Positions 43,570-64,000 of a stretch of 64,000 nt of DNA are shown piece after piece. Both the position numbers and the translations under genes were made by a program. Origin of the DNA: a virus. Taxonomy: Duplodnaviria; Caudoviricetes. The stretch is taken from IMG/VR virus record IMGVR_UViG_3300013936_000002, positions 10,408 through 74,407 of that record; one strand, given 5' to 3'. A model generated the notes under the pieces. That model ran no database searches and was not told the origin of the DNA. It saw only the letters and a program-made list of their open reading frames with translations. How positions within the stretch are numbered: position 1 is the first letter of the stretch; each line of letters begins with the position of its first letter.

Positions 43570-43880
43570 CAAACCCATGTAAATATAAAAATATACCCTC
43601 CCCCCAAAATCCAAAAATAAAATATATTATATATATAATATATTTTACCTTTTTTTATTTTTCCTTATATATATTTTTTAAAAAATATCTAATAGAAGAT
43701 ATTTTATATTTATTTATTTATATAAATAAATATATAAATTATTAGGTCATATAAAATGGGGTTAAAAAATCACTAAAAATAAAAATAATTTTTTTTACTC
43801 ATTTTAAACCAAAAAATTAAAAATTAAGTTAACCCCCCCAATTTTTGAAGATTTTTTAATCCCATTTGATAAGGGTTAAT
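43570..43880. other. AT-rich palindrome-rich non-coding region, candidate origin or packaging/terminus site
   Basis: 30-bp and 22-bp perfect AT palindromes, three GGGTTAA motifs, C tracts. Confidence 0.4.
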
Positions 43881-43960
43881 AATAAAAAACTGCTCAAAAA
43901 AGTATATAAAAAAGAAATATGCAAATTTTACGATTAGAAAAAATAATCATTTTTAATAAA

Positions 43961-43994
43961 AACTATTTACATTAAATAAAATCAATGATATAAT
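43961..43994 (+). promoter_or_regulatory. Conserved phage promoter
   Basis: aacta-tttaca-17-tataat with TG. Confidence 0.75.
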
Positions 43995-44030
43995 GACAGT
44001 ACAAAAGTTGAAAGGAGAAAGAAAACAACT

Positions 44031-44168
44031 ATGGAAAGAAAGATTGAATGGTATAAGGAGTTTTGTAGAACTAATTATTTAAAGGAAGGGGATGCAAAGT
44101 CGTTAAAAATATTTTATGACTATGTAGATAAACTAGAGAAGATGATAAAAGGTGAAAAGGGCTGTTAA
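44031..44168 (+). CDS. Small hypothetical protein (45 aa)
   Basis: AAGGAG RBS, first ORF after the promoter. Confidence 0.5.
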   Translation: MERKIEWYKEFCRTNYLKEGDAKSLKIFYDYVDKLEKMIKGEKGC

Positions 44169-47347: not shown

Positions 47348-47566
47348 ATGAAATTAAAAGAAATTATAAAGTATTTTAGTAGATATGAAAAGATAACATT
47401 ATCATATAGAAATGAAAATGAACCAAAATTTGAGGGTATAGTGCTTGAACTATGTGATGGCACAATAATGCATGATAAATTATTAAATTCAAAAATAGTA
47501 AAAATTGGAGCTACTCTATTCAATTTATGTATTGAATTGAAAAAAGGAGAAAAAATAAGATTATGA
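47348..47566 (+). CDS. Small protein, MKL[KN] paralog family
   Basis: MKLKEIIK...IVKI. Confidence 0.55.
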   Translation: MKLKEIIKYFSRYEKITLSYRNENEPKFEGIVLELCDGTIMHDKLLNSKIVKIGATLFNLCIELKKGEKIRL

Positions 47567-48006
47567 AAATTAAATTAAAAGATTTAACAGCTAAACAATG
47601 GAACGACAACATGGGTTGCGAGTGTAACAAATATAAAGACTGTAATGGTTGTAGATTTAGATATATAGATTGCTCTACCTCAAACTTTGAAAGCTCATGG
47701 ATTAATCACAAAGAAATATTCAATGATAAATTTTTAGATCAAGAAATAGAAATTGAAATGCCTGATATTTTAAATGAACAAGAAAAAGAATATTTAAAAG
47801 CGGTTATCAAACCATTCAGAGATAGAGTTATTTCAATAAGAAAAAATTTTGATGTGTTTAAAGATGCTTACTCTATATTTATTTATATTAAGAGCACAAT
47901 GGAGATAGGTAAAGTAGAAAGTATAGGTTTACCATTTTTCAAAAATAATATGTATATGGGAATGGAACACACCACAAATTATACTTTAGAAGAATTAGGA
48001 TTATAA
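47563..48006 (+). CDS. Two-domain hypothetical protein (Cys-rich A domain + B domain)
   Basis: A resembles 48010-48258; B resembles 57624-57884. Confidence 0.6.
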   Translation: MKIKLKDLTAKQWNDNMGCECNKYKDCNGCRFRYIDCSTSNFESSWINHKEIFNDKFLDQEIEIEMPDILNEQEKEYLKAVIKPFRDRVISIRKNFDVFKDAYSIFIYIKSTMEIGKVESIGLPFFKNNMYMGMEHTTNYTLEELGL

Positions 48007-48009
48007 AAT

Positions 48010-48258
48010 ATGAAACAATCAATTAAATTGAAAAATATGGTAGAAGAACAATGGGAGCATTTTAAAATGAATGAATGTTATAATGAGATTATAGAATGTG
48101 AAAATTGTCCATTTAAGTATATTGATTGTAATGAATTTGAACTTGAAGATGCATGGGTTAACCATAAAGATTTATTTAGTGATAAATTTTTAGATCAAGA
48201 AGTTGAAATAGAAGATGAAGAGCTATTATCTGAAGAAGATAAAGAAAAGGAAATAAAA
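48010..48258 (+). CDS. Cys-rich A-domain ORF running in frame into the MTase
   Basis: Paralog of the 47563 N-terminus; no stop before the internal ATG at 48259. Confidence 0.5.
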
Positions 48259-48994
48259 ATGGAATTAAACAAAATATATTTAGGAGATGCTTACGAATTA
48301 ATCAAACAAATTCCTGATAAAAGTATTGACTTAATTGTTACTGATCCACCTTATGAAATAAATAGTTTAACAGGTGGTGGTATGTTAAAAGAAAAAAGAA
48401 TAGAAAATTTAATGGACAGTTTAGAAAATGAGAATCTACATATAGGAATTAAAGAAGATATTCTAAACGAATTTATAAGAGTTTGCAAAAAAATAAATGT
48501 TTATATATGGTGCAATAAAACCTTGATTCCTAAGCTATTAGATTTTTTTGTTATCAAGCATAAATGTACATTTGATATAATCACTTGGCACAAAACAAAT
48601 GCAATGCCTTTATGTGGTGGGAAATATTTAACCGATACAGAATATTGCTTATATTTCAAAGATGGAGTAAAACTTAATACAACTTATGATACAGCTAAAA
48701 CTCATTATGAACTACCTATTAATATTCAAGATAAAGCACTTTATTCTCATCCTACTATTAAGCCAATACAAATTATTAAGAACTTAATAACTAACTCAAG
48801 CCTTGAGGGGGGGGGTAGTGCTAGACCCATTTATAGGTTCAGGAACAACAGCTGTTGCATGTAAAGAATTAAATAGACAATTCATAGGTTTTGAATTAAA
48901 TCCAAAGTTTTATGAAATTGCAAACGATAGATTAAATGATGTAACTCAAGTTGATAAAAAGAAAGAAGAACAAGGCTATATGAAATTGTTTTAG
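48259..48994 (+). pseudogene. N4/N6 DNA methyltransferase (beta order), frameshifted at a G9 tract (putative phase-variable OFF state)
   Basis: DLIVTDPPY and HPTIKP in one frame, VLDPFIGSGTT in the +1 frame; junction at G9 48807-48815; G8 joins them. Confidence 0.85.
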
Positions 48995-49006
48995 AAAGGA
49001 AAAAAC

Positions 49007-50537
49007 ATGAAAAAAGTTGATGAAGAACAAATATCTTTATTTAGTATGATATATGATGAATTTAAGATTACAAAACCAATTAGATTAATTGAATTATTTG
49101 CAGGCTATGGAAGTCAATCATTAGCATTAAAATATTTAAATGTTAATTTTGAACATTGGAAAATTGCAGAATGGGCAGTAAAATCAATCATTGCTTATAA
49201 AGATTTACATTTTAGTGAAAATAATCAAGATTATTCCAAAAATTTAAGTTTTGAAGAAATAATTAATTATTTAAACGATTTAGGAATATCAATGGATTAT
49301 AATGAACCTATGAATTTAAAACAAATAAAATCTATGGGTGAAAATAAATGTCGTATGGTATTTAATGATATAAAAGCAAGTAATAATCTTGTTAATATAT
49401 CAAAAGTGAAGGGGGGGGGATTTAAACATTGTTGATAGTGATAAGTTTCAATATATAATGACTTATTCCTATCCATGTTGAAAATGACAAGATTTATCAT
49501 TAGCTGGAAAGCAATTAGGAATGACTAAAGGTAGTGGAACAAGAAGCGGTTTATTATGGGAAGTAGAAAGAATTTTAGATGAATTAAAACAAGATAATAT
49601 TCAAGAAATGCCGATACTCTTAATGGAAAATGTTCCAGAAGTTCATTCTAAAAATAATATTAAAGATTTTAGATTATGGATTCAAAAATTAGAATCCTTA
49701 GGTTATACAAATTTTTGTGAAGATTTAAATGCCAAAAATTATGGAATACCTCAAAATAGAGTTAGAACATTTATGATTTCTATTCCAAAAGAATGTATAT
49801 ATTATTTTCCAAAAAAGAAAAAATTAGATATTTTATTAAAAGATTTATACATTAAAAATGTAGATGAAAAATATTTTTTAAAAAACAAACAAATAAATGA
49901 TATTATCCATTGGAAAGCACAACAAGATCCAATCGAAACAATGGATAAAGTAAATAAAACAGGTATTATACCTATTATAACTACAAGAAGTGGAGACTAT
50001 ACAGCTGGTATGATATTAATACCTATTAAAAATAATACTTCTCAAGGATATGAAATGGCAACATTTGGTGATGGTATTAATATTAGTGGTAGAATGAAAT
50101 ATCAAAGAGGTAATGTGCAGCATGGATTATCTCAAACTTTAACTACTAAAAGTAATGTAGGTATTATTAATGAGTTACAATTACTTGGAAATGCAACAAA
50201 TAAAACATTTAACAATGGAAAAGATATTCATCAACAAGATAGATGTTATAATGATAATTTATTGACAACTATTAATACTCATGTATTTCCATATCATTTA
50301 GATAATTTAAGATTTAGAAGATTGATACCTAAAGAACATTTTAGGTTAATGGGAGTTAAAGATAAAGATTTTGAAAAAATTAAATTAAACCAATCTGACC
50401 AATCATTATATCATTTAGCTGGGGATAGCATTGTTGCAACTTGTTTAATGGGTTTATTTGGACAATTATTAGGAATTAATTGGCAAGATAAATTTAATAT
50501 AAAAGAATGGTTTGATTATTTACCTAAAAAAATTTAA
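49007..50537 (+). pseudogene. C5 cytosine DNA methyltransferase interrupted by a G9 frameshift and a 9-nt stop-containing insert
   Basis: Motif I ELFAGYG, IV TYSYPC/QDLS, VI LLMENV, VIII PQNRVR, IX RRLIPKE.FRLMG, X LAGDSIV; G9 at 49411-49419; TGAAAATGA at 49479-49487. Confidence 0.88.
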
Positions 50538-50565
50538 AAAAGTAAGAAGAAAAGGAGATAAAATT

Positions 50566-50811
50566 ATGTGGATTAGAACACAAGATAGAGAAGAATTAGT
50601 TAATGCTGATAGAGTAAAAAATATATTTATAAATAAATTAATTAAATTAACAAATCCTAGATGGGAAATAAAAGCTGATGAATTAACTTTAGGTGTTTAC
50701 ACTTCTGAAGATAATGCTATTGATGTTTTAGCTTATATTCAAGAATGTATTTATTTAGGCAAAGCTGAAATGAATATGCCATTAGAAAAAGATGGAGAGT
50801 TGTTAAAATAA
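50566..50811 (+). CDS. Hypothetical protein
   Basis: Start at MWIRTQD with AAGGAG RBS. Confidence 0.6.
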   Translation: MWIRTQDREELVNADRVKNIFINKLIKLTNPRWEIKADELTLGVYTSEDNAIDVLAYIQECIYLGKAEMNMPLEKDGELLK

Positions 50812-50812
50812 T

Positions 50813-51295
50813 ATGTTCGAAGAAGAAAAAGAATTTATAGATAATCAAATAAAAGGCATAAATTTATCATTAGATAATGTTAATGATTATGATACTGAAG
50901 ATTATATTGAAGATTTAAATTGTGCATTAAAAACCTTTCAAAGTATAAAAAAGATAATTCTTGATTATGAAAAAGAAAATGAAGAAACAAAAAGTTTCCC
51001 AGAATGTTCAGAACTAGCATATAATGATGAATTGCCTTTAGTAAATACAATATTACAAAGAAACAATGAAATTCTTAGTTCACTTGTACAATTAGATGAT
51101 GTATTACAAAAACTAGATAACAATACGATTGTTGCTGTTTATGATACAAGCAATAAAATATTATATGATGGATCAAAAGAAGATATCTATAAGTCAAATT
51201 TAGTAATTGATAATTTATATATTAATAATATTAAACTTTATGCTGATAAAAACATCAATCCATTTATGTTAATATTAGCAAAAAAATTAAATTAA
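50813..51295 (+). CDS. Hypothetical protein
   Basis: Operon position. Confidence 0.55.
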   Translation: MFEEEKEFIDNQIKGINLSLDNVNDYDTEDYIEDLNCALKTFQSIKKIILDYEKENEETKSFPECSELAYNDELPLVNTILQRNNEILSSLVQLDDVLQKLDNNTIVAVYDTSNKILYDGSKEDIYKSNLVIDNLYINNIKLYADKNINPFMLILAKKLN

Positions 51296-51302
51296 ATAAT
51301 TT

Positions 51303-51351
51303 AAAAAAGTTAAATGATTTTATTTACATTTAACTTTTTTTATTGTATAAT
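51303..51351 (+). promoter_or_regulatory. Fused terminator hairpin / promoter
   Basis: 14-bp stem whose loop and 3' arm carry tttaca-17-tataat. Confidence 0.7.
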
Positions 51352-51380
51352 AAAATCAATAAAAGAAAGGAATTGATAGA

Positions 51381-51926
51381 ATGAAAAAAGTAAAAGTGTT
51401 ATTATATTGTACTAAAGCAAAACCATTTTTGCTTGAGCATAAAACAGATGACAATCAAGTATTATATGTAACTACTGAATTTGGTAGTTTATACTATTGG
51501 AGAATTAATCATAAAAAAGTATTAAATGGTAAAATTGTTGCTGAATGTGAAGTTGAAACCGAAGAAATTAGATTAAGTGAATATACATATTATGATGATT
51601 GTAAGATAGCTTATTTTGATACTCCTACATTACTAAACGGTGAATTATTATACAAAAGTTGTTTAGATAATGGTGAATTAGAAAATTATCTTATAAATCA
51701 AAAAGGGTATGCTTTACATATTAGCAATTTAAGAACATTTGATGAACCAAAAGGGTTATATGAATATAATATAATAAAAGCACCACAAAATATGATGAGA
51801 GTATTTGATGATAATAGAAATAAATATATTTTAATTAGCGTTCAATCTGAATGGTTATGCAAAATCTTAAATGGTGAAAAAACTATTGGAGTTAGAAAAA
51901 AAGTTTTAAAGGAGATGCTAGAATGA
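51381..51926 (+). CDS. ASCH-like domain protein, apparently circularly permuted
   Basis: LNGKIVAE, GYALHISNL..FDEP, KAPQ; the ILISVQSEWLCKILNGEKTI.VR motif is at the C-terminus. Confidence 0.7.
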   Translation: MKKVKVLLYCTKAKPFLLEHKTDDNQVLYVTTEFGSLYYWRINHKKVLNGKIVAECEVETEEIRLSEYTYYDDCKIAYFDTPTLLNGELLYKSCLDNGELENYLINQKGYALHISNLRTFDEPKGLYEYNIIKAPQNMMRVFDDNRNKYILISVQSEWLCKILNGEKTIGVRKKVLKEMLE

Positions 51927-53954: not shown

Positions 53955-54144
53955 AGGTAGAAGTTATGCAAAATGTGAAAATTGTGGATTAGTAAAAGAA
54001 GATGGGAATGTTATATTATTATTTAATGAAACCAATTATCATTGCAGAAAAACAAATCATATTGTTAAAAGATTATATGCTAATGAAAATAGCTTATGGC
54101 TTTGTAAAGATTGTTTAAATGAGCTAAGAAAGGCAATAAAATGA
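53908..54144 (+). CDS. Zinc-ribbon-like small protein
   Basis: CENCG and LCKDC pairs. Confidence 0.55.
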   Translation: MERIYQKKPRKIQMIKGRSYAKCENCGLVKEDGNVILLFNETNYHCRKTNHIVKRLYANENSLWLCKDCLNELRKAIK

Positions 54145-55253
54145 TATATGGTTATGCAAGAGTTTCAACTAAAGAACAAAATTTAGATAGACAACTTGAA
54201 GAATTTAAAAACTATAATATTGATAAAATCTATTGTGAAAAGAAATCAGGAAAGAATTTTAAAGATAGAGATGAATATCAAAAATTATTAAAAAAACTAA
54301 AGAAAGGTGATTTGTTAATTATCATGTCTATTGATAGATTAGGTAGAAATTATGAGGAAATTTTAAATCAATGGAGAATAATTGTTGAAGATAAAAAATG
54401 TGATATTCAAGTTTTAGACTTTCCAATGTTAAATACTAGAAATGGTGGTTATGGACTTGAAGGTAAATTCTTATCAAATATCATACTTCAAGTGTTAGCT
54501 TATGTCGCCGAAAAGGAAAGGCAAAAAATAAAAGAAAGACAAGCTCAAGGAATAGCTATTGCTAAAGCAAAAGGTATTCATATGGGTAGACCTAATTTGG
54601 TGTTTCCACCTAATGCTGATGAAGTGCTTAATAAATATGTTAATAATGAAATATCTAAAGAAGAAGCTATGACATTGTTAAAATGTGCTAATTCAACATT
54701 TTATAAAATGTTACAAATAAAATCATTAAAGAGAAAAAAGATATTAAAGAAAAAATTAAAAAAATATAAACATCCGAAAATTATAATTAAAAAATATAAA
54801 CATTCTAAAATTATAATTAAAAAATATAAGTATCCTAAAACTATAAAAAAAAGATATAAAAAACCTCGTATCGGAATACAAGCTAAAAAATACAAACATC
54901 CTAAAATTAAAGTTATAGCAAAAAAATATAGAAAACCTAAAATTAAAGTTGTAATTAAGAAAAATAAAAAACCTAAAATTATAAGAAAAAAATATAGAAA
55001 ACCTAAAATTAAATTTGAACCAATAATTGTTGTGAATCAAGTGGTTTATTTAAAATCTAAATCAGATTATAAAATAGTAGCTTATAAAAAGAATGGTGAA
55101 AAAGTTGAAGCAAAAACCTTTTTATTATTAAGTAAAAAATTATACACAAATACATCAACTATAAAAAATTATATGAAAGGTAAAAACACTTATTTAAATG
55201 ATGATATAGAAAAAATAGAAAAAGTTTATTATGAAAAGGAGACAAAGAAATGA
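54141..55253 (+). CDS. Small serine recombinase (resolvase/invertase) with Lys-rich repeat extension
   Basis: YGYARVST.EQ, GDLLII.SIDRLGR, ER..I.ERQ..GIA.AK..G...GRP. Confidence 0.9.
   Translation: MIYGYARVSTKEQNLDRQLEEFKNYNIDKIYCEKKSGKNFKDRDEYQKLLKKLKKGDLLIIMSIDRLGRNYEEILNQWRIIVEDKKCDIQVLDFPMLNTRNGGYGLEGKFLSNIILQVLAYVAEKERQKIKERQAQGIAIAKAKGIHMGRPNLVFPPNADEVLNKYVNNEISKEEAMTLLKCANSTFYKMLQIKSLKRKKILKKKLKKYKHPKIIIKKYKHSKIIIKKYKYPKTIKKRYKKPRIGIQAKKYKHPKIKVIAKKYRKPKIKVVIKKNKKPKIIRKKYRKPKIKFEPIIVVNQVVYLKSKSDYKIVAYKKNGEKVEAKTFLLLSKKLYTNTSTIKNYMKGKNTYLNDDIEKIEKVYYEKETKK
54759..55010 (+). repeat. Eight degenerate coding tandem repeats (KKY[KR]xPKI)
   Basis: 30-36-nt units such as aaaaaatataaacatccgaaaattataatt. 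Confidence 0.85.
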
Positions 55254-55416: not shown

Positions 55417-56757
55417 ATGAAGTTATATTATGAAGAAGAAAACGCATTTAAATTATATGAGGGTAAAATGCAAGATGTTTTACCAACATTAAAAGAAAAG
55501 TCAATTGATAGTATTGTATGTGATCCACCTTATGAGATTAATTTTATGCAAAATGGGTGGGATAATTCATCAGTTGCATTTCAAAAAGAAACTTGGCAAC
55601 ATTGTTTTAGAGTTTTAAAACCAGGTGGATATTTATTAGCTTTTGGTGGAACTAGAACATATCATAGAATAGCATGTGCTATTGAAGATGCAGGATTTGA
55701 GATTAGAGATTGTATTATGTATTTATATGGTAGTGGTATGCCAAAAGGTCAAAATGTAGGTTTAATGATTGATAAAAAAAGAGGTGTAGATAATAGAACA
55801 GGAAATGTTGTTGCTGGTGTTCATAACTCTGATAGTTTAGTTAACATAGCATCTTCTTGTAAACCTATATACGAAGAAAGACAAGCACAAAATGAGTATG
55901 CTGGGTATAATACAGCGTTAAAACCAGCTTATGAACCAGTTATTGTTGCAAGAAAACCAGTCGAAGGAACGGTGGTTGAAAACATCTTAAAATATGGTGT
56001 AGGAGCAATGAATATAGATGAATGTAGAGTTGGTATAACTGGTGGTGTAAAAACATTAGGTAATATTCCAAATAAAGAAAGAAACGAATCAATTACACCA
56101 ATTATGGATCGAAAGATATTAGGTCAAGTCGCTTTAGATAAAGGTAGATATCCTGCTAATGTGATAACTGATGGTTCAGATGAAGTAGCTGCTAATATGC
56201 CAATAAATGAATCACATTATAGTAAACCAAATTTTGAACCATGTAAAAATCAAAATAGTGCTGTTAAAATTACTTCAATAAATTATAAAAGTGGAGGTAT
56301 TCATTTTGAAGATAGTGGGTCAGCTTGTAGATATTTCTATACAGCTAAAACAAGTTCAAAAGATAGAGATGAAGGACTTGATATATTTGAAGATGAAAAA
56401 GTATGGACTCAAGATGGTAGATTTAATAGTTTTGATATTTATAAAGATAATGCACCACGAAAAAATATTCATCCAACGGTTAAACCAACAACATTAATGC
56501 AATATTTAGTTCGTTTAGTAACTCCTAAAGGTGGAACAGTACTTGATCCATTTATGGGGTCAGGATCAACTGGAAAAGCAACTATGTTTGAGAATAGAGA
56601 AAGAAATGCTAATTACAAATTTATAGGTGTTGAAATGACTGAAAAATATTTACCAATATGTAAAGCACGAATTGATTATGCACTTCATAAATTTGAATAT
56701 GATATAGAAAAAGAAAAATTAGAAGATGAAAAAAATGGAGTTGTTAGACTTTTCTAA
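55417..56757 (+). CDS. N4/N6 DNA methyltransferase (intact, long variable region)
   Basis: DSIVCDPPY, LKPAYEP, HPTVKP..LM.YL, VLDPFMGSGSTG. Confidence 0.92.
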   Translation: MKLYYEEENAFKLYEGKMQDVLPTLKEKSIDSIVCDPPYEINFMQNGWDNSSVAFQKETWQHCFRVLKPGGYLLAFGGTRTYHRIACAIEDAGFEIRDCIMYLYGSGMPKGQNVGLMIDKKRGVDNRTGNVVAGVHNSDSLVNIASSCKPIYEERQAQNEYAGYNTALKPAYEPVIVARKPVEGTVVENILKYGVGAMNIDECRVGITGGVKTLGNIPNKERNESITPIMDRKILGQVALDKGRYPANVITDGSDEVAANMPINESHYSKPNFEPCKNQNSAVKITSINYKSGGIHFEDSGSACRYFYTAKTSSKDRDEGLDIFEDEKVWTQDGRFNSFDIYKDNAPRKNIHPTVKPTTLMQYLVRLVTPKGGTVLDPFMGSGSTGKATMFENRERNANYKFIGVEMTEKYLPICKARIDYALHKFEYDIEKEKLEDEKNGVVRLF

Positions 56758-59544: not shown

Positions 59545-59859
59545 ATGGATAGAAAAACAAATAAAATATTAAAAAAATTTTTTAATTTAAAAGCAAAACA
59601 AATGTTGTGTAAATTATATTTAAGTAGCAAATTGTTTAAGGCTTGTAAAAATAAATCTAAAGTTGAGAAAACCTATGAAAAAATTGATATGAAATTATAT
59701 ATTTTTATTAAAGCTCATATTAACACACTTTCTCAATTTGATTTAGAAAAAGAAGCTGAAAATTATCAAATGACTATTAAAGACCAAATGCGATTTTCAA
59801 AAAGATATTTTGGTGAAAAATATGATATTAACAATTTGTTGGAGGCAATTGAAATATGA
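59545..59859 (+). CDS. Hypothetical basic protein
   Basis: ATGA overlap with metK. Confidence 0.5.
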   Translation: MDRKTNKILKKFFNLKAKQMLCKLYLSSKLFKACKNKSKVEKTYEKIDMKLYIFIKAHINTLSQFDLEKEAENYQMTIKDQMRFSKRYFGEKYDINNLLEAIEI

Positions 59860-60980
59860 TTTATGAAATTGGAAAAATAAAAAAATATAAAAATTATTCT
59901 TATACATTTACAAATGAAATAGTATTTAGAGGTCATCCTGATAAAGTATGCGACCAAATAGCAGCAGCTATTGTTGATGAATATTATAAATATGATAAAA
60001 ATGTAAGAGCAGGAATTGAAGTAGTTGGTGGTAAAAATAAACTATTCATTACTGGTGAATTAACATCAAGTGTTGAATTAGATATTGAAAAAATTGCTAA
60101 AAGAGTTTTAAGAGATTGTGGTTATAATTCTAATTTAGAGATTATAATTAATATTTCTAAACAATCTTCTAATATTAATCAAGGAGTAGATAAAGGAGAG
60201 ACATTAGGTGCTGGCGATCAAGGAATAATGTTTGGTTATGCTACTAATGAAACTTCGTTCTTATTACCTAAAGCAATGTTAATATTACAAGACTTTGCTA
60301 AAGCATATGATGAAATAAGAAAAGAAAATAGTAATGTATTTTATTCAGATGGTAAAGCACAAATAACTGGAGAATATGATGAAAATGATAATTTATTACA
60401 AATTACAACATTTAATGTTTCTTATCAAAATTGTGAAACAAAGCGACAAACAACTGATGCTTTATTATTAGATAAAATTATTTCCATATGTGATTATTAT
60501 AAAGTTCCATTATGCAATGTAATTATCAATAATACTGGCAAATTTAAAATTGGTGGTTTTGAGGCTGATAGTGGATTGACTGGTAGAAAGATAGTTGTTG
60601 ATACATATCAAGGATTTTGTAAAGTTGGTGGTGGTAATTTAAATGGTAAAGACTTTACAAAAGTTGATGTAACAGGAACTTATGCTGCTAGAGAATTAGC
60701 TACTTTAATTCTTAGAGTAAATCAAAAAAAATATCATATTGTTGAAACTCAATTGTCTTATATTATAGGAAATGAACTTCCATCATCAATTAGTATTAAA
60801 ATAAATGGTAAATATATTTCTTACAATCAAGCAAGCGAATTATTAGAAAAAGTTATTCAACAAAATAATTGCAAGTCGTTATATGAGCTTTATTCAGTTG
60901 ATAATATTATTAAACGATTAACTCAAAATGTTTGTCTTGAAGAAAATGCTAAATTTGGTCATATTTATGCTTATCATTAA
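59856..60980 (+). CDS. metK: S-adenosylmethionine synthetase
   Basis: GHPDKVCDQI, GAGDQGIMFGYA, DGKAQIT, ADSGLTGRKIVVDTY, GGG...GKD.TKVD. Confidence 0.95.
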   Translation: MIYEIGKIKKYKNYSYTFTNEIVFRGHPDKVCDQIAAAIVDEYYKYDKNVRAGIEVVGGKNKLFITGELTSSVELDIEKIAKRVLRDCGYNSNLEIIINISKQSSNINQGVDKGETLGAGDQGIMFGYATNETSFLLPKAMLILQDFAKAYDEIRKENSNVFYSDGKAQITGEYDENDNLLQITTFNVSYQNCETKRQTTDALLLDKIISICDYYKVPLCNVIINNTGKFKIGGFEADSGLTGRKIVVDTYQGFCKVGGGNLNGKDFTKVDVTGTYAARELATLILRVNQKKYHIVETQLSYIIGNELPSSISIKINGKYISYNQASELLEKVIQQNNCKSLYELYSVDNIIKRLTQNVCLEENAKFGHIYAYH

Positions 60981-63892: not shown

Positions 63893-64000
63893 ATGAAATT
63901 AAACAAAATATATTTAGGAGATGCTTACGAATTAATCAAACAAATTCCTGATAAAAGTATTGACTTAATTGTTACTGACCCACCTTATGAGTTTGTACCT
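63893..64000 (+). CDS. N4/N6 DNA methyltransferase, 3' truncated by the window edge
   Basis: MKLNKIYLGDAYELIKQIPDKSIDLIVTDPPY; AGGAGAG RBS. Confidence 0.85.
   Translation, partial: MKLNKIYLGDAYELIKQIPDKSIDLIVTDPPYEFVP

Follow-up and report, generated by a model that had tools for sequence, protein, structure and literature searches.

The gene under study encodes a beta-class N6/N4 DNA methyltransferase (PF01555) and is located on the forward strand at 48259..48994 of the window, which is the whole 64-kb stretch of DNA analyzed here and forms part of a 74.4-kb phage genome. The gene consists of 244 codons when a run of guanines within it is read as eight (G8). As assembled, the run comprises nine (G9; 48807..48815, forward strand), and the reading frame is lost after codon 185. 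This homopolymer, a proposed slipped-strand switch, encodes a Gly-Gly loop just ahead of motif I, a position referred to as site A. The run is uninterrupted and lies inside the ORF, where a change in its length toggles between the full-length and the truncated frame. Reading from the ATG at 48259, the frame proceeds as MELNKIYLGDAYELIK...DPPY...TNSSLEGGG and then out of frame to the TAA at 48862..48864 (forward strand), which closes the ORF 48010..48864. The G9 (OFF) product ending at this TAA consists of 185 native residues followed by a 16-residue out-of-frame tail and does not contain motif I. When one G was skipped, the sequence read ...SSLEGGVVLDPFIGSGTT... and gave a 244-amino-acid protein ending at 48994.

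Catalytic motif IV is encoded upstream of the run by the D29-P-P-Y32 codons (48343..48354, forward strand), and D29, P31 and Y32 were invariant in the alignment. The SAM-binding motif I, DPFIGSGTT (48824..48850, forward strand), is readable only in the G8 frame. The order of the motifs in the G8 reading is permuted, with DPPY first (residues 29–32) and DPFIGSGTT near the C-terminus (residues 189–197). The preliminary description of this DNA had placed the G9 run between the catalytic and SAM-binding halves of a methyltransferase, and had proposed that eight guanines would give a complete enzyme. Both claims could be confirmed, as nine guanines were counted, the frame was restored on skipping one of them, and the N6_N4_Mtase profile (PF01555; 221 positions) was split at the run into two pieces abutting at position 182. 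The upstream piece covered profile positions 1–182 (35.7 bits) and the downstream piece positions 182–220 (58.8 bits), the gathering cut-off being 26.7.

An intact homologue (L002, 2998–3729) matched the Helicobacter adenine methyltransferase (PDB 5HEK/5HFJ) over residues 5–226 (E = 2e-24), and this intact relative also matched CcrM and MboIIA. The run-bearing gene encodes a small beta-class, DpnA/M1.HpyAVI-like enzyme; its probable N6-adenine specificity is suggested by the DPPY motif together with the best matches (DpnA/M1.HpyAVI, CcrM and MboIIA). In the AlphaFold2 model (pLDDT 88.8), site A formed a turn leading from helix 170–180 to strand 186–189, the first strand of the SAM-binding fold.

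The frame of the methylase gene is also open in this genome for 84 codons 5' of its ATG, starting from 48010. The Cys-rich peptide encoded by 48010–48258 has a paralogue in the N-terminus of the ORF before it (47563–48006), and a stop codon was present 12–19 codons upstream of the methylase ATG in the relatives L001 and L002. The open segment may therefore represent a fusion that is particular to the window's genome.

Methylase genes and homopolymers of the phage genome

The source record (IMGVR_UViG_3300013936_000002) is 74,407 bp long, and its ends overlap by 99 bp, so that it assembles as a circle. The window has a G+C content of 26% and is densely coding under table 11. Genes for the large terminase, portal, sheath and baseplate were present in the contig, which thus belongs to a tailed phage with contractile-tail genes; this circular genome bears out the earlier statement that the methyltransferase is phage-encoded. 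Megablast comparison of positions 47500–51500 of the window gave no match to cultured phages. The tblastn matches of the large terminase were all at or below 27% identity, and the host therefore could not be assigned.

The methylase gene is followed by a C5 cytosine methyltransferase gene (PF00145; 49007..50537, forward strand), which is broken by a second G9 run (49411..49419, forward strand) and by a 9-nt insert with two stop codons. The second run lies 604 nt from the first and is one G longer than in the relatives L001, L002 and L194, in which it is G8 and in frame. The insert, TGA AAA TGA (49479–49487), is located between the catalytic Pro-Cys codons and the QDLS of motif IV, where L001, L002 and L194 have TGACAATGA. 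Without some bypass of the insert, the C5 gene would stay broken whatever the length of the second run, which may then gate nothing. Genetic code 4/25, in which TGA is a sense codon, was considered for the C5 gene and rejected, since 5 of the 49 long ORFs end in TGA and the coding density under table 11 is high. In other phages with a run at site A, G8 or G9 runs were also found to break a C5 methylase, within its target-recognition part, as well as a second methylase-like gene with a Pro-Cys motif (about 1501–1508 of L024, contig of L008; 1501–1509 of L019, contig of L003). Judging from these gene sequences, several methylases per phage appear to be gated.

A third methyltransferase gene (PF01555, 446 amino acids; 55417..56757, forward strand) is intact and has no run. 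The fourth (313 amino acids) starts at 63893..64000 on the forward strand of the window, crosses the circle join and continues to genome positions C1 1 to about 840; its site A reads SSQENQVVLDPF, again without a run. The first 32 and last approximately 60 residues of the fourth methylase are the same as in the run-bearing gene, while the middle differs, and the 99-bp end overlap of the assembler falls inside a stretch common to the two genes. An S-adenosylmethionine synthetase gene (metK; 59856..60980, forward strand) provides the context of a cofactor supply for the methylases. The methylase set together with metK fits a methylation-centred counter-defence. A serine recombinase of 370 amino acids with a Resolvase N-terminal domain is encoded among the methylase genes (54141–55253) and could be an integrase or an invertase.

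A homopolymer census of the whole 74,407-bp genome revealed only two G runs of at least 5, namely the G9 at 48807–48815 and the G9 at 49411–49419, and the longest C run was 7. The claim that G/C runs of at least 8 are confined to this gene and the next thus extends from the window to the genome. At 13.1% G, approximately 0.0007 G9 runs would be expected per strand; two were seen, both in methylase genes. Among the glycine codons of long ORFs, GGG accounted for only 4.7%. Over-representation of the run, together with the conservation of its position described below, points to a repeat kept by selection and not by chance. The census also revealed 22 A/T runs of at least 8, of which 10 were inside intact ORFs of at least 150 amino acids. 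Intact long genes with A/T homopolymers had been noted before, and these ten runs argue against general homopolymer error.

The longest C run of the genome (C7, 43833–43839) lies in an ORF-free stretch (about 43620–44031). G7/G8 runs also occur in non-coding DNA of the relatives G001 and G002, 3' of a TTGACA...TATAAA-like promoter. The C7 was considered as the counterpart of those runs, and this was rejected as the stretches are not homologous.

Guanine runs in homologous methyltransferase genes

Homologues were gathered from IMG/VR, GTDB genomes and metagenome contigs, and each was scored by tblastn for frame continuity and for G/C runs. Among 214 full-length genes, a G run of at least 7 was present in 63 and a C run of at least 7 in none. 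The frame was broken in 29 of the 63 genes with a run compared to 5 of the 151 genes without one (Fisher p = 1e-13); the position of the break at the run was verified in the window and in L003, and was judged in the others from the frame change between tblastn pieces. After deduplication, 186 unique genes were left, and 54 of them (29%) carried runs of G7–G12, always as G on the coding strand.

The runs were concentrated at three positions, all of which are located in loops of the AlphaFold2 model. Site A, the position of the window's run (residues 181–185), was occupied in 32 unique genes, 19 in frame and 13 out of frame, with lengths of G7–G11. Site B, directly after DPPY (residues 37–40), had a run in 15 unique genes (6 in frame, 9 out; G7–G12), and site C (about residues 135–146) in 6 (3 in frame, 3 out; G8–G9). 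One further unique gene carried an in-frame G9 at about residue 95. The presence of the tract in homologues, which the preliminary description had named as a check, was therefore found at the exact site. The site-A homologues were 42–97% identical, on contigs with 25–57% GC.

A maximum-likelihood tree of the 186 proteins required 24 changes of run state, compared to 51 with shuffled labels. The root was reconstructed without a run, and none was present in the distant homologues of environmental and archaeal origin. This result implies repeated gain and repeated loss of runs among the phage-like gut and rumen members of the family. Where site A has no run, the homologues mostly have E-G-D, which implies that the building of the run altered the protein. 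A search of viral contigs for the exact flank pattern with a variable gap returned no match; the flanks of the relatives differ, and the window's own record was excluded from this search.

One homologue, L269, belongs to Enterococcus phage 156 (LR031359.1, 127832–128555), where the homologous methylase is annotated as two CDS. The break in the gene of this cultured phage falls on an A8 run within the RVMKKIN codons; it may reflect a sequencing error or an equivalent switch built on A instead of G.

Length variation of the run and state of the gene

Near-identical genes were found to differ in the length of the run. L103 (G9) had no mismatch in 670 nt to L104, L105 and L107 (all G7). L217 and L220 were 99.3% identical, the former with an out-of-frame G7 and the latter with an in-frame G8; L231 and L234 were 99.1% identical, with an in-frame G8 and an out-of-frame G9, respectively. 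The near-identical genes L201, L219 and L202 had G9, G10 and G12, respectively. Within the lineage of the window itself, G8 was in frame in L196 and L002 and G7 was in frame in L001, while the run was interrupted and the gene in frame in L195 (GAGGGGGAT) and L197 (GAGGATGGGG). Going by the codons concerned, the interruption should hold the frame steady in these two genes. The nearest relatives of the window were 93–97% identical at the protein level (tblastn), and the strictly isogenic pairs come from other clades of the family.

The same variation could be traced in cultured phages. The gene bpm of Bordetella phage BPP-1 is homologous to the window's enzyme (26% identity, E = 5e-20; beta-class, PF01555) and carries an in-frame G8 at the column of the window's run (PGGVVLDPFAGSGTT compared to LEGGVVLDPFIGSGTT). 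This G8 is the only G/C run of at least 7 in the 42.5-kb genome of BPP-1. At the same column, BIP-1 has G9 and BMP-1 has G10; both are out of frame and no gene is annotated there, and the two phages are 99.8–99.9% identical to BPP-1 over the gene region. A 2025 isolate has G8 once more at the bpm run. The tract length, which had been expected to vary, thus does so both among near-identical metagenomic genes and in the series BPP-1, BIP-1 and BMP-1 (G8, G9 and G10).

These data bear on the possibility that the ninth G is an assembly or sequencing miscount, with a real run whose population is essentially G8 and a gene that is ON. Homopolymers of 8–10 G have a raised indel error on all platforms, the G9 lengths derive from a short-read assembly consensus and carry some error, the record comes from a metagenome assembly and its ends overlap by 99 bp, and the closest relatives, L196 and L002, have G8. 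However, an out-of-frame consensus was obtained for 13 of the 32 site-A genes from other assemblies, and differences of 2–3 G between near-identical genes are unlike plus-or-minus-one read errors. The records of the cultured BPP-1, BIP-1 and BMP-1, the second G9 located 604 nt away and likewise one above its relatives, and the ten A/T runs of at least 8 in intact ORFs also speak against a miscount, which is considered unlikely. Even with a miscount, the locus would be a conserved hypermutable run.

The codons 3' of the run were compared with those of L002. Over 57 codons, nine differed, and all nine differences were synonymous with none non-synonymous, which indicates purifying selection in the G8 frame and an OFF state that is recent or transient and not a product of decay. 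Reversibility of the switch gains indirect support from this purely synonymous change. The same comparison opposes the explanation that the gene is a dead pseudogene, broken by chance at a G run and decaying. Such an explanation could draw on the out-of-frame state of the gene in this record, on the extra stops in the neighbouring C5 gene and on the two other intact methylases of the phage. Against it, the methylase gene has no further lesion, a single-step change in its uninterrupted run would turn it ON, and the relatives are ON; a pseudogene is thus extremely improbable.

It is also conceivable that G9 is not truly OFF and that the enzyme is restored by transcriptional slippage, by +1 ribosomal frameshifting or by a separate motif-I fragment. 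On long A/T homopolymers, slippage of RNA polymerase is an established phenomenon. The sequence GAGGGGGGGGG followed by the GTG at 48818 resembles a ribosome-binding site and start codon, with a GAGG-like stretch 8 nt 5' of this in-frame GTG, and the resulting 58-amino-acid fragment could complement the N-terminal fragment. However, the GTG is not conserved at site A (L003 has GTA ATA and L004 has TTA GTC), and frameshifting would have to be +1, whereas the common shift is -1. The in-frame and out-of-frame lengths within near-identical pairs also fit switching at the DNA level better than a fixed recoding length. A leaky G9 is accordingly regarded as very unlikely.

The proposed switch and comparison with known systems

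The G9 run is most likely a hypermutable simple-sequence repeat (contingency locus) whose slippage toggles a phage adenine-type methylase, caught here in the OFF state. This phase-variable reading had been put forward in the preliminary description, and the comparison of homologous sequences supports it. During replication of the phage DNA, the polymerase would slip on the G run and a G would be added or lost. With G8 or G11, the full 244-amino-acid enzyme would be made (ON), while G9 would give a truncated product and G10 an immediate TAG. The OFF products would keep DPPY and the target-recognition part, and they should be inactive because the SAM-binding motif I is missing. The assembly consensus would represent the OFF state, and a burst of progeny would be a mix of methylating and non-methylating genomes. 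Such a mix could serve as bet-hedging: methylated DNA would presumably evade ordinary restriction enzymes, which cut the unmethylated site, and unmethylated DNA would evade methylation-dependent (Type IV/IIM) restriction. The run of the neighbouring C5 methylase could bring the number of methylation states to as many as four, if the C5 gene is expressed at all. The sequences show the run with its consequence for the frame, its conserved position and varying length among homologues, and purifying selection on the part that is out of frame; the slippage rate in this phage, the activity of the enzyme, its target site and the selective trade-off are inferred.

Beyond this single locus, there is a slight preference for the broader reading that poly-G methylase switching is a widespread and repeatedly evolved trait of gut and rumen phages, with the window's phage having two constitutive and two switchable methylases in addition to a SAM synthetase. 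The broader reading is suggested by the coding-strand G runs in 29% of unique homologues, located at three surface loops and gained or lost about 24 times on the tree, and by the use of the same loop from a Bordetella podovirus to gut phages of 26% GC. If this is true, each burst would be a mixture of epigenetic types and would thereby provide a standing counter-defence to restriction of the classical as well as the methylation-dependent type. Methylation of phage DNA is favoured under restriction and is selected against by nucleases that require it, and the switch would keep both options in one lineage. It would also affect host range, surveys of phage methylomes and the interpretation of disrupted methylase genes in viromes, many of which would be switches instead of pseudogenes or errors. 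The comparison further yields a set suitable for testing, namely a single family of enzymes with three hot-spot loops, dozens of naturally occurring ON/OFF allele pairs and, as a cultured model, BPP-1 bpm with its run at the corresponding position.

The literature searched contained no account of widespread poly-G-gated methylases in gut phages, nor of the family-wide breadth seen here (three hot-spot loops, approximately 29% of genes, G only). A DNA-modification gene switched by a simple-sequence repeat is as such an already known kind, represented by BPP-1 bpm, T2 agt and the bacterial phase-variable methylases. The idea of a poly-G phage methylase is not new, since such a run has already been described for the methylase gene of BPP-1 (Liu et al. 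2004, J Bacteriol 186:1503, as relayed in 10.1101/2025.10.21.683753). The two phages share a homologous enzyme with poly-G at the same alignment column. BPP-1 is a 65% GC podovirus of a proteobacterial host with one methylase, whereas the window's phage has 26% GC, 74 kb, contractile-tail genes, four methylases with metK, and a second run in the C5 methylase. The two genes are too distant to tell if the runs share an origin.

In phage T2, reversion of the A9 run of agt is about 1000-fold faster than that of a point mutant, and the reversible frameshifts trade TgvAB against McrA/BC restriction (Gomez, Barrick and Waters, 10.1101/2025.10.21.683753). Both cases involve a homopolymer in a phage DNA-modification gene and the same proposed logic. 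The T2 case concerns an A9 run in a glucosyltransferase gene with measured rates and phenotypes, whereas the window's case concerns a G9 run in a methyltransferase gene and was studied by sequence comparison.

Phase-variable methyltransferases of bacteria include the Type III mod phasevarions as well as Type I and Type IIG enzymes, in Haemophilus, Neisseria, Helicobacter and Campylobacter (PMC5909438, PMC4889913). They resemble the window's gene in having a simple-sequence repeat in the ORF and ON/OFF control through slipped-strand mispairing. However, the bacterial enzymes are chromosomal, are usually part of a restriction-modification system and affect host gene expression, whereas the window's enzyme is small, solitary and phage-encoded, has no restriction partner nearby and likely has the phage genome as its substrate. 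The gene neighbours were a small Cys-rich ORF and the C5 methylase, with no res gene. Assignment as a Type III phasevarion was rejected, given a solitary enzyme of 244 amino acids, a marginal match to Type III Mod (6K0W, E = 4e-4) and the absence of res.

Runs of 7–11 G are also known from Fletchervirus phages of Campylobacter, where they are reported to lie in receptor-binding protein genes and to create subpopulations (Sorensen et al. 2021, Cell Rep 35:109214). The poly-G of Fletchervirus gates host recognition, whereas the run of the window would gate DNA modification.
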